36,592 nucleotides of DNA from a virus. Lineage: Duplodnaviria > Heunggongvirae > Uroviricota > Caudoviricetes. The notes below the pieces were generated by a model that worked only from the letters and a program-made list of their open reading frames with translations, had not been told where the DNA came from and did no database searches. Of this stretch, positions 2,621 through 31,544 are shown piece after piece; the stretch's first letter is position 1; each line of letters starts with the position of its first letter. The stretch lies in IMG/VR virus record IMGVR_UViG_2703718832_000006; one strand, given 5' to 3'. The position numbers and the translations under genes were made by a program.

Positions 2621-2732
2621 AACTGAAGTTGCCCTGAAAATGAAATTTTTTTGCACAACCGCAGAACTTTTCCGCAGGGCATCAGTCTTAATTAGTGCCA
2701 CTGCTTTTCTTTGATGTCCCCATTTTGTGGAG

Positions 2733-2776
2733 CCCATCAACCCCGCCATTTCGGTTCAAGGTTGATGGGTTTTTTG
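2733..2776 (+). terminator. putative rho-independent terminator after ybjL
   Basis: Inverted repeat cccatcaacc ... ggttgatggg followed directly by tttttt. Confidence 0.55.
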
Positions 2777-2855
2777 TTGCCTGAAATTTAAGCTGTTTAA
2801 AATCATGATGTTAGAAACACTGTTTTTTAACGATGGCGACAAAATGGCGGCAGCG

Positions 2856-10144: not shown

Positions 10145-10717
10145 TCAGGGGGATTCATTACTCTTATTTGCCGGAAATTTTCTATAAATTGTGGAAACAC
10201 CCACATCAAAAATCAGTGCAATACGCTGTCTTGATTCTCCGGCCTCGAGTAAGCGTCCAATCTGTGCCCACTGTTCGGTGGTCAACTTAGGACGGCGTCC
10301 ACCTACTCTGCCTTTATCACGAGCTGCAGCCAGCCCCGCCCTGGTACGTTCAACTATCAGTTCGCGTTCCATTTCAGCTAGGGCACCCATGACATGAAAA
10401 AAGAAACGGCCCATTGGGGTACTGGTATCAATACTGTCAGTCAGGCTTCTGAAATTCACACCACGCTGGCGCAACTCTTCTATCAGCGTAACAAGATGCC
10501 GCATACTGCGCCCCAACCTGTCCAGCTTCCAGACAACCAGCGTGTCTCCTGCCGATAGTGTCCTGAGTAGTTTTTTCAGCCCCGGTCTGTCGGACTTAGT
10601 GCCACTGATTTTGTCCTCAAAAATCCGCTCACATCCCGCGCAGTTCAGTGCATTACGTTGCAAATCGGTGTTCTGGTCATTTGTTGACACGCGTACATAG
10701 CCAATAAGCATGATCAT
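10145..10717 (-). CDS. site-specific DNA invertase, Hin/Gin/Cin/Pin serine recombinase family
   Basis: 190-aa ORF starting MIMLIGYVRVSTNDQNTDLQ (catalytic-serine region of small serine invertases) with a C-terminal HTH; inverted crossover sites flank the adjacent tail-fibre segment. Confidence 0.9.
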   Translation of the reverse strand: MIMLIGYVRVSTNDQNTDLQRNALNCAGCERIFEDKISGTKSDRPGLKKLLRTLSAGDTLVVWKLDRLGRSMRHLVTLIEELRQRGVNFRSLTDSIDTSTPMGRFFFHVMGALAEMERELIVERTRAGLAAARDKGRVGGRRPKLTTEQWAQIGRLLEAGESRQRIALIFDVGVSTIYRKFPANKSNESP

Positions 10718-19444: not shown

Positions 19445-20095
19445 TCAGCGGCTGTCATTGCGCAGTCTGCGCTCCAGCTGCTGTTTGTCTTTTTTCACGC
19501 CACAGCGGGGATCGAGCTGTAACGCATGGTTGAGATGATTAAGGGCGGAAGCCGGGTTGCTTTCACTCAGGACAGCGCCAATCGCTTTATGCAGACGCGC
19601 CCGTGACTGGTCCGGCATATCCAGACCGTCTGTCAGCTCCAGCGTCTGCAGCAACAGATCGGCATCAAAGCCGGTGGCGGCAAGCATTGCGCTCTGCGCT
19701 GCATCTGCCATTTCCTCTGCCAGCACGGTCTGCACGTTGCGGTTACCCAGCGGCATCACCCAGCCATGACGCAGGGCATGACGCCCGATCTCCAGCGCCC
19801 CGGCATAATCTCCGGCATCAATGCGCCACAGCATCACGTACATCAGCACGTCATCCTGTTGAGCGCCTCCGGCAGCCAGGACGCCCTCCGCCCAGGCGGC
19901 ATATTTCGGCAGCAGCTCCACCTTTATTTCCGCTTTTTTCACCGTGGACTGAACGCCCTTGAGACGGCGGCGGTCTTCCGCCAGTTGCAGCAGCATCAGG
20001 TCATAGCCCGACGCGTGGCGAACACTGCCACCCTCGCGAGCGGCCTGTTCAGCCTGAACGCGCAGGCGATGCTGCCGTGCGGGACTCAGGCTCAT
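19445..20095 (-). CDS. terminase small (endonuclease) subunit M
   Basis: 216-aa ORF directly after the capsid gene, P2 gpM position. Confidence 0.82.
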   Translation of the reverse strand: MSLSPARQHRLRVQAEQAAREGGSVRHASGYDLMLLQLAEDRRRLKGVQSTVKKAEIKVELLPKYAAWAEGVLAAGGAQQDDVLMYVMLWRIDAGDYAGALEIGRHALRHGWVMPLGNRNVQTVLAEEMADAAQSAMLAATGFDADLLLQTLELTDGLDMPDQSRARLHKAIGAVLSESNPASALNHLNHALQLDPRCGVKKDKQQLERRLRNDSR

Positions 20096-22149: not shown

Positions 22150-23916
22150 ATGAACACCACACTGACACCCGCAGATCTCGATCCCCGTCGGCAGGCCATG
22201 CTGCTGTACTTTCAGGGATACCGCGTAGCCCGCATTGCTGAAATGCTGGGCGAGAAAGTTGCAACCGTTCACAGCTGGAAAAAACGCGACAAGTGGGGTG
22301 ACTATGGGCCGCTGGATCAGATGCAGCTCACCACCGCCGCACGCTACTGCCAGCTCATTATGAAGGAGCACAAAGAAGGGAAAGATTTCAAAGAGATTGA
22401 CCTGCTGGCGCGCCAGTCTGAGCGCCACGCGCGGATCGGCAAGTTTAACAATGGCGGCAACGAAGCCGACTTAAACCCTAACGTCACCAACCGCAATAAA
22501 GGCCCACGCCGTCAGCCGGAAAAGAATGTTTTCACCGATGAGCAGATTGAGAAGCTGGAAGAAATCTTCCATTCCTCCATGTTCAACTACCAGCGCCACT
22601 GGTGGGAAGCCGGAAAAACCAACCGCATCCGCAACCTGCTGAAGTCACGCCAGATCGGCGCGACCTTCTATTTTGCCCGTGAAGCCCTGATTGACGCCCT
22701 GCTTACCGGACGTAACCAGATTTTCCTTTCTGCCAGTAAGGCTCAGGCCCACGTCTTTAAACAATACATCATCGACTTCGCCAAAGAAGTCGAGGTGGAG
22801 CTAAAAGGCGATCCGATGGTGCTTCCTAACGGAGCCACGCTTTACTTCCTCGGCACCAATGCCCGCACGGCCCAGAGTTATCACGGCAACCTGTATCTGG
22901 ATGAATATTTCTGGATACCGAAATTCCAGGAGCTGCGCAAAGTGGCTTCCGGGATGGCTATTCACAAAAAATGGCGACAAACCTATTTTTCCACGCCATC
23001 CAGCCTGACCCACAGTGCTTATCCGTTCTGGTCCGGTGCGCTGTTCAACCGTGGACGCAACAAAGCTGACAAGGTGGACATCGACCTGTCCCACAGCAAT
23101 TTGGCCCCCGGCCTGCTGTGCGCAGACGGGCAATACCGCCAGATAGTCACCGTGGAAGATGCGGTGCGCGGCGGCTGTAACCTGTTCGACCTCGACCAGC
23201 TACGCATGGAGTACAGCCCGGACGAATACCAGAACCTGCTGATGTGCGAGTTCGTGGACGATCTCGCGTCCGTGTTCCCGCTCAGCGAACTGCAGGCGTG
23301 CATGGTGGACAGCTGGGAAGTCTGGACCGACTTTCATGCACTGGCCCTGCGCCCGTTTGGCTGGCGCGAAGTGTGGATCGGTTATGACCCGGCAAAAGGT
23401 ACGCAGAACGGCGACAGTGCCGGATGCGTGGTGGTGGCTCCGCCAGCCGTGCCGGGTGGTAAGTTCCGCATTCTTGAGCGTCACCAGTGGCGCGGGATGG
23501 ACTTCCGCGCCCAGGCTGACGCCATCAAAAAACTCACCGAACAGTACAACGTGACCTATATCGGTATCGACTCAACCGGCGTTGGTCACGGGGTTTATGA
23601 GAACGTGAAAGCGTTCTTTCCTGCCGTCCGGGAGTTTGTCTACAACCCCAATGTTAAAAACGCCCTGGTACTCAAGGCCTACGACATTATCAGCCACCGC
23701 CGTCTGGAGTTTGACGCCGGGCACACCGACATTGCGCTGTCATTCATGGCAATCCGTCGCGCCACCACCGCCAGCGGCAACCGCCCGACCTATGAAGCCA
23801 GCCGCAGCGAAGAAGCCAGCCACGCCGATCTGGCCTGGGCAACGATGCACGCACTGTTTAACGAACCGCTGCAGGGTGAATCCGCCAATACCAGCAATAT
23901 TGTGGAGATTTTTTGA
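22150..23916 (+). CDS. terminase large (ATPase) subunit P
   Basis: 588-aa ORF divergent from O; P2 gpP position and size. Confidence 0.9.
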   Translation: MNTTLTPADLDPRRQAMLLYFQGYRVARIAEMLGEKVATVHSWKKRDKWGDYGPLDQMQLTTAARYCQLIMKEHKEGKDFKEIDLLARQSERHARIGKFNNGGNEADLNPNVTNRNKGPRRQPEKNVFTDEQIEKLEEIFHSSMFNYQRHWWEAGKTNRIRNLLKSRQIGATFYFAREALIDALLTGRNQIFLSASKAQAHVFKQYIIDFAKEVEVELKGDPMVLPNGATLYFLGTNARTAQSYHGNLYLDEYFWIPKFQELRKVASGMAIHKKWRQTYFSTPSSLTHSAYPFWSGALFNRGRNKADKVDIDLSHSNLAPGLLCADGQYRQIVTVEDAVRGGCNLFDLDQLRMEYSPDEYQNLLMCEFVDDLASVFPLSELQACMVDSWEVWTDFHALALRPFGWREVWIGYDPAKGTQNGDSAGCVVVAPPAVPGGKFRILERHQWRGMDFRAQADAIKKLTEQYNVTYIGIDSTGVGHGVYENVKAFFPAVREFVYNPNVKNALVLKAYDIISHRRLEFDAGHTDIALSFMAIRRATTASGNRPTYEASRSEEASHADLAWATMHALFNEPLQGESANTSNIVEIF

Positions 23917-24959
23917 TGGGAAAGAGTAAGAAAAACCGCGCTGCGGCGACGAATCAGCTCAAGCATAAAAGCCAGACTTCAGCCGAAGCATTCAGCTTTG
24001 GCGATCCCGTTCCTGTTCTGGACCGCCGTGAACTGCTGGACTATGTGGAATGCGTACAGATGGACCGCTGGTATGAGCCGCCCGTCAGCTTTGACGGACT
24101 GGCACGAACCTTCCGCGCTGCCGTGCATCACAGCTCACCGATTGCAGTAAAATGCAACATTCTGACCAGTACCTACATCCCTCACCCGCTGCTCAGCCAG
24201 CAGGCTTTTTCACGTTTTGTGCAGGACTATCTGGTATTTGGTAACGCCTACCTGGAGAAACGCACGAACCGCTTCGGTGAAGTTATCGCCCTTGAGCCTG
24301 CTCTGGCAAAATATACCCGACGCGGGTTAGACCTGGATACCTACTGGTTTGTGCAATACGGTATGACAACCCAGCCGTATCAGTTCACGAAAGGCAGCAT
24401 TTTTCATCTGATGGAACCGGACATCAACCAGGAGATCTACGGCCTGCCAGGTTATCTTTCTGCCATTCCGTCAGCCCTGCTCAACGAGTCCGCCACGCTG
24501 TTCCGCCGGAAGTATTACATTAACGGCAGTCATGCAGGCTTCATCATGTACATGACCGATGCCGCGCAGAACCAGGAAGATGTGAACAACCTCCGCAATG
24601 CGATGAAAAGCGCCAAAGGTCCGGGCAACTTCCGCAACCTGTTTATGTACTCGCCTAACGGCAAAAAGGACGGGCTTCAGATTATCCCATTGTCAGAAGT
24701 TGCGGCGAAGGATGAGTTTCTGAATATCAAGAACGTGAGCCGTGATGACATGATGGCTGCGCACCGCGTGCCGCCGCAAATGATGGGGATTATGCCTAAT
24801 AATGTTGGAGGGTTTGGGGATGTGGAAAAAGCCGCGAAGGTTTTTGTCAGAAATGAGTTGGTTCCTTTGCAGAAAAGACTAGTTGAGCTAAACACCTGGA
24901 TAAATCAAAATATTGTGTCATTTAATGACTACATCCTTGACCAAGATAAGGGCATTTAA
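23913..24959 (+). CDS. portal (capsid vertex) protein Q
   Basis: 348-aa ORF overlapping the P stop by 4 nt; P2 gpQ position and size. Confidence 0.9.
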   Translation: MMGKSKKNRAAATNQLKHKSQTSAEAFSFGDPVPVLDRRELLDYVECVQMDRWYEPPVSFDGLARTFRAAVHHSSPIAVKCNILTSTYIPHPLLSQQAFSRFVQDYLVFGNAYLEKRTNRFGEVIALEPALAKYTRRGLDLDTYWFVQYGMTTQPYQFTKGSIFHLMEPDINQEIYGLPGYLSAIPSALLNESATLFRRKYYINGSHAGFIMYMTDAAQNQEDVNNLRNAMKSAKGPGNFRNLFMYSPNGKKDGLQIIPLSEVAAKDEFLNIKNVSRDDMMAAHRVPPQMMGIMPNNVGGFGDVEKAAKVFVRNELVPLQKRLVELNTWINQNIVSFNDYILDQDKGI

Positions 24960-25747
24960 TGCCCTTTTTTATCCTCATAAGCAACGTCATCGTATAATTT
25001 TAAGGCACCTAAATCATGTAATTGCTGCTTGAATTCCTTACTTAAACTAAACCCCTGAAGGAGAGAATATTTTTCAATAAATTTCTTGGCAGGCTTTCCT
25101 ACCGATGAAAAACCATTTAATAGCATCGCGCCAGATTCTATAGAAGATATTTGTGCTCTAACTAATTTCGCATACTTGGTTTTTTCTTTCTCAGTCAAAT
25201 AGTTAGAGTCATTGATATGTTTAAAAATATGGTAAATATTCCTGAAATAATGTCCCACATTCGCAAAATTGTCACCTTCCAGATAAACCATATTAACTGA
25301 AAGCTCTAACCTTTCATCCAAAGGAAGTGAATCATCCACAATATTAAGTAGGTTAAACTTCACTTCGGTAATGTATAATGAAAGAGCCTCCCGTCCTACA
25401 TACACTTTTCCATCTGAATACGTTGTTTTAATTTCTGATAAGTTATCTTTATGAAATCTTAGTAACTCAAATAACACAGACTCGAATGACTGAATAGATG
25501 ACTGCCTAGATGTAGAATATAGTGTGAAACAAACAAGCATGATAGAGATAAAGGCCAGAGCAGGATTCAGTACACCACCAATATAATCGCCAAACTGTCC
25601 CCATTTCTCTACGGAATCACTCCATGAATACATTCCAAATTTACAAACATAGCTAACAAACACTATCAGCATTAAAATAAAAGCCAAAAACAACAGTGAA
25701 TAAATAATGGCATAACGCTTAATATTTCGAAGAATGGCACCACACAT
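24956..25747 (-). CDS. membrane protein with two N-terminal transmembrane helices and a roughly 190-aa soluble C-terminal domain (cargo, function unknown)
   Basis: The track ORF 24956..25813 begins with a non-ATG codon and overlaps the upstream gene; the first ATG (Met 23, at 25747) has an AAGG about 10 nt upstream; two hydrophobic helices (AIIYSLLFLAFILMLIVFV and ALAFISIMLVCFTLY); AT-rich codon usage. Confidence 0.55.
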   Translation of the reverse strand: MCGAILRNIKRYAIIYSLLFLAFILMLIVFVSYVCKFGMYSWSDSVEKWGQFGDYIGGVLNPALAFISIMLVCFTLYSTSRQSSIQSFESVLFELLRFHKDNLSEIKTTYSDGKVYVGREALSLYITEVKFNLLNIVDDSLPLDERLELSVNMVYLEGDNFANVGHYFRNIYHIFKHINDSNYLTEKEKTKYAKLVRAQISSIESGAMLLNGFSSVGKPAKKFIEKYSLLQGFSLSKEFKQQLHDLGALKLYDDVAYEDKKGH

Positions 25748-25758
25748 CTCACAATACC

Positions 25759-26136
25759 TTATATATAATCCATATTTAAATCTATTGTATAAATACCTTT
25801 CCTCGCCACACAAGGAATAGATTTCTTTAAAATTCTAACATTTTTAATTTCCCACACATAATAACCTGGAGACCAAGGCTTATTAAGAGTTGTTTCTTGG
25901 TTTTGTTTTAAGTAATCCTCATATGACCAATTTCTAACTGAAACAAAATCGACAATAGCCATAGCCACCCCATGATCTATATCGCTTTGATTTTTAAGAT
26001 ATTTATCATTCTGAACAAGAATGACGTTTTTTAATGGTATCGTTTCAGGATACCACGACCGTATTTCGATAGATTTAGAACCATTTATAATATTTTCTAC
26101 CGCTGGAGTCAAAATCGATATAGCTTGAAACTTCAT
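25759..26136 (-). CDS. ASCH-domain protein (PUA-like fold)
   Basis: 125-aa ORF with the N-terminal GxKxxExR signature of ASCH domains (GSKSIEIR). Confidence 0.6.
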   Translation of the reverse strand: MKFQAISILTPAVENIINGSKSIEIRSWYPETIPLKNVILVQNDKYLKNQSDIDHGVAMAIVDFVSVRNWSYEDYLKQNQETTLNKPWSPGYYVWEIKNVRILKKSIPCVARKGIYTIDLNMDYI

Positions 26137-26201
26137 GCTCTATCCTCTACTATGCTAAGGCTATAACATTCTAACATAAATAAATAAACGGAGGTAATAC
26201 T

Positions 26202-26747
26202 ATGTTAATTTTCATAGCAGGTGTTCATGGTGTAGGCAAAGGTTACTTGTGTTCATTTGCAAAAGATGATTTCGGGGTAACTCATGTAAGCGCAAGCGAA
26301 CTTATAAAAAATAATTCTAATATTAAATTTGATAACAGTAAGTTAACGGCCACACCTGATAAAAACCAATCAATATTACTTACGGCACTTAATGCATTAA
26401 AGTTAAAGGTATCCAATATTTTATTGGATGGTCATTTTACCTTAATAAATAAAAATGGAGATATTGAAGTTCTCAAGCAAGAAGTATTTGAGGAAATGGG
26501 GCTAGATGGAGTAATTTTAGTTGAGGAGTCTCCCGATACAATTAGAGAACGAATAATGAAACGAGATGGGAGTGATATTACTTATGATTTAAATAAGCTG
26601 ATGGAAGCTGAAAGAGAAAACGCAAAATATGTTACAAATAAAATCAATGTACCATTAATTATCTTAGAATCCCCAACAACAAACGATTTATCTATTGCCC
26701 TAGAAAAACTGGGCATGGTTAAGAAACATGCCCAGACAACATTATAA
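26202..26747 (+). CDS. small P-loop NTPase, kinase-like
   Basis: 181-aa ORF with a Walker A-like loop at the N-terminus (IFIAGVHGVGKGYL) and a hydrophobic-strand aspartate (ILLDGHF); GGAGG RBS before the ATG. Confidence 0.65.
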   Translation: MLIFIAGVHGVGKGYLCSFAKDDFGVTHVSASELIKNNSNIKFDNSKLTATPDKNQSILLTALNALKLKVSNILLDGHFTLINKNGDIEVLKQEVFEEMGLDGVILVEESPDTIRERIMKRDGSDITYDLNKLMEAERENAKYVTNKINVPLIILESPTTNDLSIALEKLGMVKKHAQTTL

Positions 26748-27134
26748 ATAACGATAAGACTGTGGGGCGACGCCGCCGGGAATCAACTCATTTAAGTCGA
26801 CAGGGAATTTATATCTTTTAGGGCTTTTGATGGAAATAGCAAAAGCCTTTTCTCTTTGGTGGAAATAATCTTTAAAAAAAGAATGTGTAATTCCTGCATG
26901 AGCTTTCGTTTTATCCCACAATTCTGAAGGGGATAGAGCAAGAATATCTCCTACTTTAAATTCACCTATTACTTTGCCAACCGGCATCGTTGCGTAAATA
27001 ACTATCGTATCAACATTTTTATTTCTAAAAATATTTTTCCGAAACTCATATTTTTTTTTACCAGAAAGTATACTCTCTGCATACTCTGGCTTAATCGATA
27101 ATAAAACTTTCATCAACACCTCCCTGTAAGACAA
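26742..27134 (-). CDS. ASCH-domain protein (PUA-like fold)
   Basis: 130-aa ORF with the ASCH GxKxxExR signature (SGKKKYEFR); the start may be Met 8 (27113); its stop overlaps the convergent kinase stop by 6 nt. Confidence 0.6.
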   Translation of the reverse strand: MSYREVLMKVLLSIKPEYAESILSGKKKYEFRKNIFRNKNVDTIVIYATMPVGKVIGEFKVGDILALSPSELWDKTKAHAGITHSFFKDYFHQREKAFAISIKSPKRYKFPVDLNELIPGGVAPQSYRYL

Positions 27135-27672
27135 TCTGCTTAAATGCTGAATCAGTTAGTGGTAAAAAACCCCAATAATCACTATTGGTATAACCTGTAA
27201 TATTCATGATTTCATCACGAATAACTCTTTTTTCCAAAGGGAAATTATAAGTAAACCGTATAATTATCGGATAATTTTTTTTCATATATAGAAGCTGTAA
27301 CTCATCTTCATCAAAAACGCTATAAGGTTCACAGTAATTCTTAAATTCCTCATAAGTTAAGAAATCGTGAATATCTTTAATTTCCTGAACCACACACACT
27401 GAAGTTGCAACAGATCTAAACCGAGCTGGACCTTGTCCATCTGAAGTACGATAAATAAGCAAATTATCTCCAGGCTTTAGGCTGGCTACCCCATGCATTT
27501 TTGTTAAGTATACTTTTTCAATACTGTTGGTATGTGATATATCAGCGATGATACCAGCACTCTCATTGTGGAGTTTTGACTCAGGGAAAAGACGTGTATG
27601 CCATGCAGGATAAATACTTAATAAATAATTTCTCCCCTGCAATTTGACTAAGGGATAATTAGCATAGCTCAT
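27091..27672 (-). CDS. hypothetical protein (193 aa), middle gene of the GNAT-ASCH operon
   Basis: ORF packed between the GNAT and ASCH genes with a 3-nt gap upstream and an overlap downstream; no motif I can assign with confidence. Confidence 0.5.
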   Translation of the reverse strand: MSYANYPLVKLQGRNYLLSIYPAWHTRLFPESKLHNESAGIIADISHTNSIEKVYLTKMHGVASLKPGDNLLIYRTSDGQGPARFRSVATSVCVVQEIKDIHDFLTYEEFKNYCEPYSVFDEDELQLLYMKKNYPIIIRFTYNFPLEKRVIRDEIMNITGYTNSDYWGFLPLTDSAFKQIVLQGGVDESFIID

Positions 27673-27675
27673 TTT

Positions 27676-28146
27676 TTACTCCTTCCATACCAAGTTTTTA
27701 AAGTATACACCTTCTTGCCCATTAATCGTAGAAAGATTTTTCCTCGCCTTTAAAACAAAACCATATTTAGTTAATAAGCGAATTAATCCTGAATGCTTAT
27801 CAAATATAGTAACATATACTTCTTTTAGTTTGTTTCTCATAGCAAATTGAAACATAATTCTAATAAAACGCTCTCCAAGTTTGGTTCCATGAGCATCGAT
27901 TTTAAATGTGCCAAGCTTTACTCGCTTCATCTTTGGAAACGTTGGAGTCATATCACTCAACTCTTCATCTTCTATTTTCAAATAGAGAAAACCATCGATT
28001 TCACCTAATTCATTACGTGATACAAACGCCTTATTTTTACCTTTTGAGAGAAACCAAACATCAAATCCTTCATAATCAGCTCTTAGGCTGTTAAAAAACG
28101 GATCTTTTAAATCGATATCACTAAAAAATTTTTCCTCGATAGACAT
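27676..28146 (-). CDS. GNAT-family N-acetyltransferase-like protein
   Basis: 156-aa ORF with a GNAT-like core pattern (HGTKLGERFIRIMFQFA ... LIRLLTKYGF); fold assignment is by eye only. Confidence 0.5.
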   Translation of the reverse strand: MSIEEKFFSDIDLKDPFFNSLRADYEGFDVWFLSKGKNKAFVSRNELGEIDGFLYLKIEDEELSDMTPTFPKMKRVKLGTFKIDAHGTKLGERFIRIMFQFAMRNKLKEVYVTIFDKHSGLIRLLTKYGFVLKARKNLSTINGQEGVYFKNLVWKE

Positions 28147-28320
28147 CCAGTTCCTCTTCTAATGGCAGCGAGCAAGTGACCTTATCCTTACATGTTAATA
28201 GATAACCACAGCTGTAGGCAATTACATACATTAAGCTCTATCAAACAACGAGCAAACTTAAGCACCGCTACAACTCAACCTAGCTGATGCCTGTTTTGAC
28301 GATTACCCTATCAGCGCGCG

Positions 28321-28339
28321 CTCGTATCCCCGCCACGCC
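28321..28339 (-). other. cos-like cohesive-end site
   Basis: Minus-strand GGCGTGGCGGGG..., matching from memory the first 12 nt of the 19-nt cohesive ends of P2 and 186. Confidence 0.4.
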
Positions 28340-28380
28340 TGCCCGCTTTATGTAGTGGTTTTCATGCACCTGCATGATCT

Positions 28381-28408
28381 ACGCAAAAGCCCGCCAGTTC
28401 TGGCGGGC
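28381..28408 (-). terminator. putative rho-independent terminator after the DinI-like gene
   Basis: Stem gcccgccag / ctggcgggc with a 3-nt loop, followed on the minus strand by TTTTGCG. Confidence 0.45.
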
Positions 28409-28543
28409 CTTAGCAAAAACGATCCTCAAACGATCATGCGATCTCATGCGGCATAGACATGCACTACAGAGCTAACGCCTCGCAAGGGCTCGTTGTTCAA
28501 CCTTGCTGACGCCAGAAGCAAGTTCAGACGCCAGCAACGTTTC

Positions 28544-28777
28544 TTAATGCAGCCAGCTGTCGTCTTCCCACACCTTCTGCATAATTTTCATCACTTGTTT
28601 TCTTTCTTCGTCCTGTTGCAGCCCAGTCAGTTCCACACCGTTAGAGCTACCTTTGCGGATACGAATTACCGTTTTGGGATACAGGGGGCGCAGATTGCGG
28701 TAAAGCTCGGATTCAAGGGCGTCCAGGGTAGACTGGCTAATCTTCTGCTCTTTATCGATCATTATTTCAATGCGCAT
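28544..28777 (-). CDS. DinI-like protein (DNA-damage-inducible protein I family; 186 Tum C-terminal domain-like)
   Basis: Start placed at internal MRIEIMIDK... of the track ORF 28544..28849; about 77 aa; DinI-like N-terminus and acidic/aromatic C-terminus (WEDDSWLH). Confidence 0.72.
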   Translation of the reverse strand: MRIEIMIDKEQKISQSTLDALESELYRNLRPLYPKTVIRIRKGSSNGVELTGLQQDEERKQVMKIMQKVWEDDSWLH

Positions 28778-28787
28778 AAAAGACCCC

Positions 28788-28976
28788 TCAGCTGATGACA
28801 TCCATTGAGCGGTTGTATTCGTGGCTTCTGATTTTTGCCATGAGTTCATCTGTCAGTTCAGAAACCCACTGCAGGGCCAGCCCCTTCTCTTCATCACTAC
28901 ACTCACTAGCCGCTACAAGCTTAAGAAAAAAATCAATGCGCTGGAGCTTCAAAGACTCCAAAAAATAGTCCTGCAT
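28788..28976 (-). CDS. small hypothetical protein (62 aa), first gene of the SOS-box operon
   Basis: Internal ATG (Met 35 of the track ORF) preceded by AGGAGG at good spacing; a LexA box lies about 45 bp upstream. Confidence 0.5.
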   Translation of the reverse strand: MQDYFLESLKLQRIDFFLKLVAASECSDEEKGLALQWVSELTDELMAKIRSHEYNRSMDVIS

Positions 28977-29017
28977 CTTTCCTCCTATGACACCACAAGC
29001 AATACTGTATGTATAAC

Positions 29018-29037
29018 CACTGTTTATATTTACAGTA
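29018..29037. promoter_or_regulatory. LexA (SOS) box
   Basis: caCTGTttatatttACAGta, a perfect CTGT-N8-ACAG match with an AT-rich spacer, immediately upstream of the small ORF / DinI-like operon. Confidence 0.65.
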
Positions 29038-29129
29038 TATAATAATCTTACTGATGTAAAACGTTTTTTTACGTTCATCAGCCTGATATGCCTGGTATTA
29101 TTAAGAGCACGAATTGTTAACCCGCGTAA

Positions 29130-31544
29130 TTAATACAGGTTCCGCCACTTATCATCTTCCTGCAAACGCTGGTTCCGATAGAAGATACGCAGGCCTGCTC
29201 CTGACGGAATGCTGCCGCCGCGAAGGAGTAAATCGACTTCTTTCTCGCTGCCATCAAATCCTCTGGACTTCAGTTCATAGACGAGCTGCTGTCGTTGATG
29301 GTCTGTAATTCGCTGTTTGTAGTCTCTACGCCGTTTCGGTTTCACCAGGCGTAACCTTACAGCCAGTTCCCGGCGCTCTTTTTTGTTCATACTGTGCAGG
29401 TAATCGTGCAACTCCTTGTCATCCATACGGGTGATATCCGTTCTGGTATCCCCATCAGCTGATTTGTCTTTCCCTTGTTGGTACAAATTTTCAGCAAGGG
29501 GACAGTTATTGCCACGAGTCCAAGGGGCGCAAGCGCCCTGGTCGGCTGCCGCCTCCTGAACGTCAACGGCCTTACGAACCATTTTCCACTTCACTGCATG
29601 AGTGCAAATCTTGCCCTGTACAATGGGTGACCAGATGCCATAAATACGAATACCGTGATCGCCATAAGCAGTCGGCTCTTCGTTAATTTCATAAGCTGTT
29701 CTGATAAGGTGATATTTGCGGGGAACCAGTACGCCGCCCTGCTTCATGATGTAGGTGGCAAAACAACCAGCATCAGCAGCAGCCAGGATGGCATCAAGGC
29801 GCGGGTTATCCAGTACCGGCGCACCTGCTTTTTTGTCCCCCTGTTGCCTTGCCGCCTGACCAGCCAGCAATCGCAGTTCACGGTAAGCCTGACGCCCCGG
29901 AATGCCAAAGAAGCGGAATTGCTGAACACGATGCAGAGACGCCCAGGCATTAACGTATTCAGCATTATCACGCAGGGATTTACCCGTTTCCTTGCTGATC
30001 TCGCCAGCCAGACCACGCCCGTCAATGTTCTTACTGATGTATTTCGCGATGTAGCTTGTCGGTGTTCCTTTGCGTGGGTTTATCAGCTCAGATTTAAAGC
30101 GTGGACCAGTGTTATTACCCAGTTCCTCGCGGTCTTCACGGATGGCAAACTTACGCAACAATGCAGTAATGGCGCGGCGGTCTTTTTTGCGCATGAAACA
30201 CATGAGATGCCAGTGCACAGTACCGTCATGGTGCGGCTCAGCCACCCGCACGCCATACCAGCGCAACCCGGCTTTGTGCATAGCCTTACGAAATGCAGCA
30301 AACATGCCGACCAGATAATCGCTGCTTTGTCTTACCGTCGCATTTGTCCAGGTCGGGTTGGGTCTGCCGTTGTTGAGCGTGGAATGGAAACGTGACGGAC
30401 AGGTGATAGTGTAGAAAACGGCGCAGTCACCACGCATTTCTGCGATAAGCTCCAGACCTTTAACACAGGCCATCATCTCATTGCGGCGATGTGCCGGGTT
30501 GCTGCTGCTGGCGTTTACCACATCTTCCATATCCAGCGTGTCGCCGTCTTCGTTCACCAGTTCATGAGAACGGAAAAACTCCAGCGACTTACGGCGCTGC
30601 TCACGTTTATGCGTCACGGCTTCATAGCTGACATAGGGAGATGCTTTTTTGCTGACCAGGCAGACAGCACGCAACTGCTCTTCCCGCCATTCGCAACGCA
30701 TCTTCCACAATTTTCGATACCACCAGTCGGCGCAAAGCATACGTGCCAGCGAACCCGGTATGAGTTCATAGGGCACGGGTTTGCGGCGGTTTCTTTTCCG
30801 GCGGAGTTGCTCAAACGCAGGCGGGATAACATCCAGTCGCAGGGTTTCCGCTGCCACCTTTTCCCATGTCTTGCGGATTTCTTCTGGCTTAACGTCATCG
30901 GTGGCATATAAATCGCCACAAGCGGCATCAAGGCACATGCTCATATGCGCAGCTACCAGGGTGGACAGGCGTTTTACCTGATCCTGACTCATTTCAGGCA
31001 GGATCAGCAGGCCCTCAAGCCCTTGATGGCTTGCCATAAAACGGAAAGAAGCGGATAGCTGACTGTCGCGTACACAATCCAGTCGCTCCAGACATGGCTT
31101 AATCGTCTCACGCAAATAGCGGGAATAAGCCTTTGGCCTGCCCAGGCTGCTGAAGTATTCGATACGTTGCATCAGCGGCTTGCTGATGTGGGTAGGCTGG
31201 GCGCTGACATCTGCCAGAATGACCATGTCCGGGTTAAAAAGCTGCTGCTCATGCGCAAGCTTTGCGCGGCTAATGAGCTTATCCTGCTCCATTTCGCGCT
31301 GGACAGGATCACGGGATTCATTAAAGAAATAACGCTCCCAGACCTGCTCACTCAGTGCCTCGCGGCGCAGTTGTTCCTGCTCGTTATCGGCAGCATACAG
31401 AGTGATCAGGTTTGAAAGTGCAGACTCCGGCGCAAATTCCGCCGGGTCCAGATAAGGGTTAATGGCCTTTTTCGGGCCGTTCCATGAAAATGATGCAGCG
31501 GCCTCGTTAAAGCCGCTAGAGTTGCTCATATCGTCATGACTCAT
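29130..31544 (-). CDS. replication initiation protein A (rolling-circle nicking protein)
   Basis: 804-aa ORF in the position of P2/186 gene A; contains a tyrosine pair (YIAKYI) resembling the rolling-circle initiator active site. Confidence 0.88.

Follow-up and report, generated by a model that had tools for sequence, protein, structure and literature searches.

A probable P2-family cos site of the Fels-2 type, flanked by a cargo island, in an Escherichia coli prophage at the rybB gene

The segment at positions 28314-28464, read on the minus strand, is very probably the cos site of an apparently intact prophage of the Fels-2 type (Peduoviridae) with a size of about 33.9 kb, which on sequence evidence is inserted at the 3′ end of the Escherichia coli rybB gene. 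The window, i.e., the whole stretch of DNA that was analyzed, comprises 36,592 nucleotides (IMG/VR record IMGVR_UViG_2703718832_000006). The site qualifies as cos by every available sequence criterion, since it shares the ungapped architecture of the P2, 186, and P4 sites, is nearly identical to that of Fels-2 and contains the 19-mer of phage SEN8. The cohesive-end type, the 55-bp core, the position between A and Q as well as the cognate terminase and portal genes, by which cos sites of the P2 family are recognized, were all found. An earlier sequence-only reading, which had interpreted a short motif at this place as cos, is thus supported. The type of cos, its position and the hotspot for foreign genes beside it are all described in the literature, and the finding is in this respect correct but known. 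The limits of the conserved block at the level of single bases, 28314-28464, are a small addition of the present work.

The motif in question is the 12-mer GGCGTGGCGGGG, which was confirmed at 28328-28339 on the minus strand and is the sole copy in the window. On the minus strand it opens a 26-mer, GGCGTGGCGGGGATACGAGCGCGCGC (28314-28339), which consists of the 19 nt GGCGTGGCGGGGATACGAG followed by CGCGCGC and is unique in the window even if three mismatches are allowed. If one mismatch is allowed, the 12-mer finds a match in 21 of 100 dinucleotide-preserving shuffles, as would be expected of a chance G+C-rich match or of a part of some other element unrelated to packaging. Such an origin is nevertheless exceedingly improbable, as neither the exact 12-mer (0 of 100 shuffles) nor the 26-mer was ever found in the shuffled sequences. 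Chance as the origin of the motif is excluded by the co-linear conservation over 151 bp and by the occurrence of the motif at one and the same place, between Q and A, in more than 100 loci, both of which are described below.

The 19-mer GGCGTGGCGGGGATACGAG at 28321-28339 (minus strand) is the predicted 19-nt 5′ cohesive end, based on homology to SEN8, Fels-2, 186, P2, and P4. Letter for letter, it agrees with the cos annotated in Salmonella phage SEN8 and also with Fels-2, and it matches 186 at 15 of 19 positions and P2 and P4 at 14 of 19 each. Its sequence is of the type GGCG(A/T)GGCGGGGA..., which defines the cohesive ends of the P2 family. The earlier reading took the 12-mer for the start of the cohesive ends of both P2 and 186; this is exact for 186 (GGCGTGGCGGGGAAAGCAT), whereas P2 is one base off within the 12-mer (GGCGAGGCGGGGAAAGCAC). 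The records of SEN8, EtG, P2, and 186 all start at the exact base corresponding to 28339, and in a BLAST comparison of the block with phage records those of SEN8 and EtG were found to end one base before the 19-mer. In addition, the 19-mer falls inside a feature named “putative cos” in the record of Escherichia phage Cartapus. The variant GGCGTGGCGGGGATACGAG has already been published for SEN8 (PMC5427200), and the cos assignments of SEN8, Cartapus, and Fels-2 were themselves made by similarity (PMC5427200; database records).

By analogy, the nicks are predicted 5′ of 28339 in the minus strand and between 28320 and 28321 in the plus strand. Because the overhang deviates from those of 186 and P2 at four to five of its 19 positions, its length and the cut positions could differ as well, so that the site would be cos but the terminase would cut elsewhere and leave an overhang other than the 19 nt of P2 and 186. 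The differences from 186 are located at positions 14, 16, 17, and 19 of the 19-mer, the assignments of this variant were all made by analogy (PMC5427200), and no physical mapping of the ends was found in the literature for the ATACGAG variant of cos. However, the bases flanking the nicks, GGGC-R before and GCGCGC after, are invariant in P2, 186, P4, Fels-2, and the window, and the ungapped spacing is identical, with one variable base (C or T) between the 19-mer and GCGCGC. A displaced cut is therefore given only a very small chance, and the 19-nt end is kept as the predicted one.

For the comparison with known sites, the right terminus of P2, 186, and P4 was in each case joined to the left one, both being annotated in the records, and the resulting junctions were set against the Fels-2 prophage and the minus-strand sequence of the window. 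Conservation with the termini of P2 and 186 reaches far beyond the 12-mer, as all five sequences align without a gap over 151 bp, from -125 to +25 if positions are counted from 28339, where the cohesive end starts. Over this block (28314-28464, minus strand), the number of positions identical to the window is 144/151 for Fels-2, 94/151 for 186, 92/151 for P4, and 78/151 for P2, compared to a mean of 38/151 in the other 151-nt windows of the Fels-2 genome, where the maximum is 57 apart from the true cos match. Fifty-four columns are invariant across all five elements. This invariant architecture comprises GCAT at -123, -110, -100, and -28, AAAACC, AAGnGGGC(A/G), GGCG(A/T)GGCGGGGAnA and, past the overhang, GCGCGC. 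The three phased GCAT motifs at -123, -110, and -100 are located at 28436-28463 on the minus strand, at the same ungapped positions in all five elements, and form a putative recognition arm for the terminase. Furthermore, the alignment revealed a proximal GCAT pair, ATGCAGGTGCAT, at -36 to -25 (28364-28375, minus strand), of which TGCAT at -29 is invariant in the five elements and ATGCA at -36 is common to the window, Fels-2, and 186.

The part of the block around the predicted cut sites, 28314-28368 on the minus strand, reads TGCAT-N-AAAACC...AAGCGGGC, followed by the 19-mer and CGCGCGC, and is the counterpart of a 55-bp core of the P2, P4, and 186 cos sites that was reportedly described by Ziermann and Calendar in 1990. 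The minimal functional cos is presumably about 125 bp long. The limits of the core were set from the five-way alignment, and the stretch so delimited, which shows an ungapped identity of 42/55 to P2, 44/55 to 186, and 43/55 to P4, is taken to be the published core. Two articles refer to a cos core of this size, about 55 bp, that surrounds the cut sites and is common to P2, P4, and 186 (PMC5694545, PMC9594776). The complete 151-bp block is a candidate minimal cos for packaging or transduction constructs.

A left-arm motif of P2 and 186 (approximately +50 to +80, CGTCTnAGCGC...) was also considered and then discarded as a requirement for cos in the lineage studied. No CGTCTnAGCGC-like stretch was seen by eye in the leader of the island (28147-28313, minus strand), a stretch of variable sequence that separates its first gene from the cos block, or in L081, a relative with an empty site. 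The only match above the gathering threshold in an Rfam scan of the whole window is the RybB sRNA gene (2700-2778, plus strand, 105 bits), and a scan of 28000-29200 by E-value gave no match, so that the cos region contains no known RNA family.

The conservation of the site was followed in relatives by scanning IMG/VR with the portal protein, which resulted in 80 loci with portals at least 92% identical. In 76 of these 80 relatives the 12-mer occurs once, downstream of Q and upstream of A and in the same orientation. The columns from -125 to about +25 are conserved in 77 relatives, mostly at 80% or above, and both flanks are variable: 52 distinct 30-mers were counted past +26 in 76 relatives, and 34 distinct 37-mers before -128. 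On the Q side the conserved stretch reaches only 7 nt beyond the 19-mer, and on the A side it begins about 125 nt ahead of it.

In a further scan, the exact 19-mer was searched in one genome per species, which gave 54 loci. In more than 30 species of Enterobacterales and in a Pasteurella it is located between Q, towards the left end, and A, towards the right end, in every case in which the fetched stretch included Q or A. In these species-level loci, cos is 197 to about 3000 bp away from the stop codon of Q. The exact 19-mer together with a recognizable cos block was also identified in contigs of Chitinimonas, which belongs to the Betaproteobacteria (L138, L094, L099, and L100), one of them with Q on the expected side of cos. 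The contig L138 shows a P4-like layout with AlpA, cos, a pair of an AAA_21/AAA_15 ATPase and a DUF4062 protein, and a P4-type integrase. A tblastn search with psu, sid, delta, and alpha of P4 against the 54 loci found only P4-type integrases, and it is the layout, AlpA, and the integrase of L138 that suggest a P4-like element. Among the other Chitinimonas copies, one has a VgrG gene right after cos and one has ParA/ParB genes 1-2.8 kb before cos.

The 19-mer was additionally observed in contigs of metagenome-assembled genomes (L096, L112, L133, L136, L140, and L143), which carry the labels Hydrogenedentota, Chloroflexia, Christensenella, Anaerolineae, Bacillota, and Geobacter. L140 looks like an enterobacterial contamination of its bin, as the Q and DinI that it encodes are 93% and 99% identical, respectively. 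L096, L133, and L143 may be chance or unrelated occurrences, because only 45-56 of the 151 positions of the block are identical.

On the A side of cos, a LexA-controlled operon (28544-29035) was identified. It comprises a LexA box with a perfect CTGT-N8-ACAG pattern (CTGTAAATATAAACAG, 29020-29035), an ORF coding for 62 amino acids (28788-28976, minus strand) and a DinI-like gene (28544-28777, minus strand; Pfam DinI, E = 6e-23). These three features alone were found, in line with the claim of the sequence-only reading that this side contains nothing but an SOS-box operon. The operon has the same layout as STM2728/STM2726.1 of Fels-2 and is comparable to the p95-tum region of 186. With 805 bp, the A side of the window is in its minimal state, as it is in 22 of 68 relatives, among which its length spans 803-5108 bp. 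A promoter and terminator scan of 27900-29300 was uninformative: no sigma-70 site was found, the LexA-box promoter was missed too, and the sole match was a weak 5-bp stem on the plus strand (28343-28358) at chance level.

About 135 nt downstream of the stop codon of the DinI-like gene, a G+C-rich hairpin, GCCCGCCAGAACTGGCGGGC, followed by TTTTGCG, is located at 28382-28408 on the minus strand (-69 to -43), within the cos block. The 51-nt stretch around it has a folding energy of -27.6 kcal/mol (z = -5.2), and the stem contains eight uninterrupted G-C/A-U pairs. The subsequent T run has only four T's before GCG, and a consensus terminator scan gave no call. The hairpin had been seen before as a terminator of the DinI-like gene. 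It is real, but it is not specific to this gene, as the hairpin and the T run are kept in nearly all relatives whatever gene lies upstream, with G-U and compensatory changes in the stem and a loop that flips between GAAC and GTTC. Most likely, it would act as a built-in intrinsic terminator that stops transcripts from the A side, e.g., of the DinI operon, before cos.

Alternatively, the hairpin (28389-28408) could be mainly a structural or recognition element of cos, bound by a protein or bending the DNA, and not a terminator. It is part of the conserved block irrespective of the upstream gene, and the hairpins that 186 and P4 have at the corresponding ungapped position are not followed by a T run, both of which would fit such a function. 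This explanation is nonetheless considered rather unlikely, since P2 lacks a hairpin at this place and stem and T run have been kept as a unit in this lineage, as a terminator predicts. The P2 terminase packages the DNA of both P2 and P4, of which P4 does have the hairpin. As it is absent at this place in P2, the hairpin is not a universal element of cos. The role as terminator remains the preferred one, and the two roles are not mutually exclusive.

The genes around the site are arranged in the order P, Q (plus strand), island, cos, DinI operon, and A (minus strand). The gene P (22150-23916, plus strand) encodes the large terminase subunit with a gpP-type N-terminal domain (Pfam Terminase_5, Terminase_6N, and Terminase_6C), and like P the portal gene Q (23913-24959, plus strand; Pfam Phage_portal) is read towards cos. 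The second terminase subunit is encoded by M (19445-20095, minus strand; Pfam Phage_term_smal). The right arm is bounded by the replication gene A (29130-31544, minus strand; Pfam Phage_GPA, E = 6e-128). Identity to the proteins of Fels-2 is 95% for gpM, 97% for gpP, 91% for gpN, 88% for gpQ, and 88% for gpA; Q is 61% identical to Q of P2 and of 186. The host is E. coli, and the prophage is located between ybjL/rybB and rcdA. The core of the attachment site, ATGGGTTTTTTGTT (2765-2778), is the 3′ end of the RybB sRNA gene. In E. coli MLI104K1 this core is repeated 75-88 nt past the stop codon of the integrase, and the second copy belonging to the prophage in the window would accordingly be expected just past the right end of the window. 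A serine DNA invertase gene (Resolvase and HTH_7; 10145-10717, minus strand), which neighbours the tail-fibre genes here and in Fels-2, suggests a segment for host-range switching.

It could be argued that the cos sequence is intact but the prophage is defective, the site being a relic that is never cut. One gene of the island, PDC-M11A, is interrupted by an in-frame stop codon, which indicates that some mutation has occurred; otherwise nothing positive speaks for a relic. On the other hand, Pfam recognized ogr, the terminase subunits M and P, the portal Q, A, CI, and the integrase, all of them full-length, and N is full-length by comparison with Fels-2, the remaining late genes being judged full-length by ORF size and order only. 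The genome of about 33.9 kb, compared to 33.6 kb for P2, suits the P2 capsid, and the block differs from that of Fels-2 at seven of 151 positions. A relic is hence held to be improbable, though slightly less so than a displaced cut, and the site is treated as the cos of a prophage that is probably viable.

On the basis of what is known of P2, 186, and P4, packaging can be assumed to proceed as follows. Terminases of the P2 type act on circular monomers. Once the DNA has been replicated, the gpM/gpP terminase would recognize the right-arm part of the block, i.e., GCAT at -123, -110, -100, and -28 and then AAAACC...AAGCGGGC, and would nick both strands in a staggered way, giving 19-nt 5′ overhangs of the sequence GGCGTGGCGGGGATACGAG (28321-28339). 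The DNA would then be threaded through the gpQ portal, and after injection the ends would anneal to form a circle again. The exact nick positions, the binding of the terminase to the GCAT arm and the viability of the prophage are predictions in this scheme. With cos at this place, the linear map of the prophage is fixed: it starts at 28339, its left end, proceeds from there in the direction of the island and Q, and has its right end on the DinI side.

Between cos and Q, an island of low GC content with a length of about 3.35 kb (24956-28313) was identified, which spans from the stop codon of Q, with an overlap at 24956-24959, to one base from the block. Its GC content is 32-36%, compared to 52-55% in the phage core, which marks it as foreign in composition. 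The previously claimed position of the island between cos and Q holds, with a distance of 3.36 kb from the Q stop codon to the 19-mer, and P2 was rightly said to have well under 1 kb here: from cosL to the Q stop codon there are 167 bp in P2 and 176 bp in 186. The first gene next to Q codes for a putAbiC-like protein of 285 amino acids (24956-25813, minus strand; Pfam putAbiC, E = 1e-18) and overlaps the Q stop by 4 nt. It is accompanied by a gene for an ASCH-like protein of 125 amino acids (25759-26136, minus strand; weak Pfam match) and, in divergent orientation, by a gene for an AAA_17/adenylate-kinase-like protein of 181 amino acids (26202-26747, plus strand; Pfam). Closer to cos, PADLOC reported candidates for PDC-M11B with an ASCH domain (26742-27134, minus strand) and for PDC-M11A, the latter as two in-frame ORFs (27091-27672 and 27676-28146, minus strand), with E = 1e-49 to 1e-69. 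No PADLOC system fits the putAbiC-like, ASCH-like, and kinase-like genes (24956-26747) as a set. Judging from these similarities, the genes of the island are probable defence cargo.

The PDC-M11A candidate is split by a TAA codon at 27676-27678 into ORFs of 156 and 193 amino acids, the second of which has a good ribosome-binding site (GGAAGGAG) and an ATG start codon. Its homologue in SopEPhi, orf12 with 369 amino acids, is 58% identical and uninterrupted, and the stop aligns with a serine in a linker. In the RefSeq annotation of E. coli MLI104K1 the two halves are separate proteins, and the same set of product names is found in seven further genomes. The split may be due to a nonsense mutation of recent date, or the protein may function in two pieces. 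A stretch of 155 nt in the PDC-M11B/A overlap (26959-27113) is 70% identical to genes of several lambda-like coliphages, homologues of the ASCH pair that one of the phage records (PhiR47_2) labels GevA and GevT; no paper describing either name was found in the literature, only unrelated ones.

Homology to other phages ends at about 28311-28314. The complete island is present in eight of 5426 complete E. coli genomes; a query including cos and the DinI segment matches 1279 genomes, and the partial matches listed correspond to that segment. Among the 80 IMG/VR relatives the island occurs only in L006.

The interval between A, cos, and Q (gpA-gpQ) is known as a hotspot of defence genes directly adjacent to cos (Rousset 2022, PMC9122126; PMC13586616), with a mean cargo of 3.2 kb (PMC9122126). 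An earlier article already names the region from cosL to Q among the places where P2-like phages gain foreign genes (PMC5694545, citing Dodd and Egan 1996 and Nakayama 1999). Corresponding to this hotspot, the island lies in the gpA-gpQ interval against cos, and the content of this interval varies among near-identical phages. Long distances between cos and Q are normal in this lineage and not exceptional, as the relatives range from 191 to 3523 bp, with about 1.7 kb as the median, and 75 of 76 lie above 500 bp. In total, the cargo between Q and A amounts to 4.2 kb in the window, compared to a median of 3.3 kb in the relatives. Since conservation does not extend further than 7 nt beyond the overhang on one side and about -125 on the other, the DNA outside of the block is free to vary and forms the hotspot adjacent to cos. 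Assigned to this hotspot, the island need not be counted as an odd insertion.

The lengths of the cargo on the Q side and on the A side were also compared in 68 relatives (L007-L085), which gave a Spearman coefficient of -0.25 to -0.29 (p 0.02-0.04). A trade-off between the two sides due to capsid capacity was considered, and the anticorrelation is too weak to rely on for it.

The PDC-M11A/B genes occupy the Q side of cos in the window (26742-28146) and the A side in SopEPhi, oriented alike with respect to cos. There (L148, AY319521, 9357-10978), PDC-M11 is located between DinI and cos, and the block follows right after the stop codon of PDC-M11B. This change of sides, the break points at +26 shared by dozens of relatives, and the 19-mer common to P2-like phages and a P4-like element as distant as that of Chitinimonas would fit the idea that the 151-bp block is a portable boundary module and that cargo is swapped through the cohesive ends themselves. 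Recombination mediated by the ends has been offered as speculation by Rousset et al. 2022 (PMC9122126). If it took place, a given cassette could be picked up by one end of the linear genome as well as by the other. It is regarded here as doubtful, because the position of the cargo break points at the edges of the block (+26 and about -125) suits selection on the block at least as well, and ordinary recombination beside a strongly constrained sequence fits the evidence equally well.

Among the known systems, the site is most similar to those of the Fels-2-type phages (Felsduovirus: Fels-2, SEN8, SopEPhi, and RE-2010) and of Cartapus (Elveevirus), with which it shares the identical 19-mer and the CGCGCGC flank. 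As in Fels-2, SEN8, and Cartapus, it is located between Q and the DinI/A side, with cargo genes between cos and Q. In contrast to these phages, each of which has a different cargo on the Q side, the prophage described here resides in E. coli and is integrated at rybB.

With P2, 186, and P4 the site has GCAT, AAAACC, AAGnGGGC, GGCGwGGCGGGGA, and GCGCGC at the same ungapped positions in common. The cos sites of these elements are likewise flanked by A-side and Q-side genes, P4 itself being without Q or A. Unlike in P2, 186, and P4, four to five of the 19 overhang bases are different; in addition, less than 200 bp separate cos and Q in P2 and 186, and P2 has no hairpin.

Compared to the published hotspot, there is no difference in kind, as hypervariable, defence-like genes of low GC content lie against cos in both cases, whereas the gene set itself, consisting of AbiC-like, ASCH, and kinase genes and a split PDC-M11, is a rare one, as the genome counts above show. 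Finally, the site is unlike the cos of lambda in sequence, to which it has no similarity, and in the overhang, which has a length of 12 nt in lambda, but it resembles lambda cos (cosN/cosB) in its design, in which a nicking site with an adjacent arm for terminase binding leads to 5′ cohesive ends.
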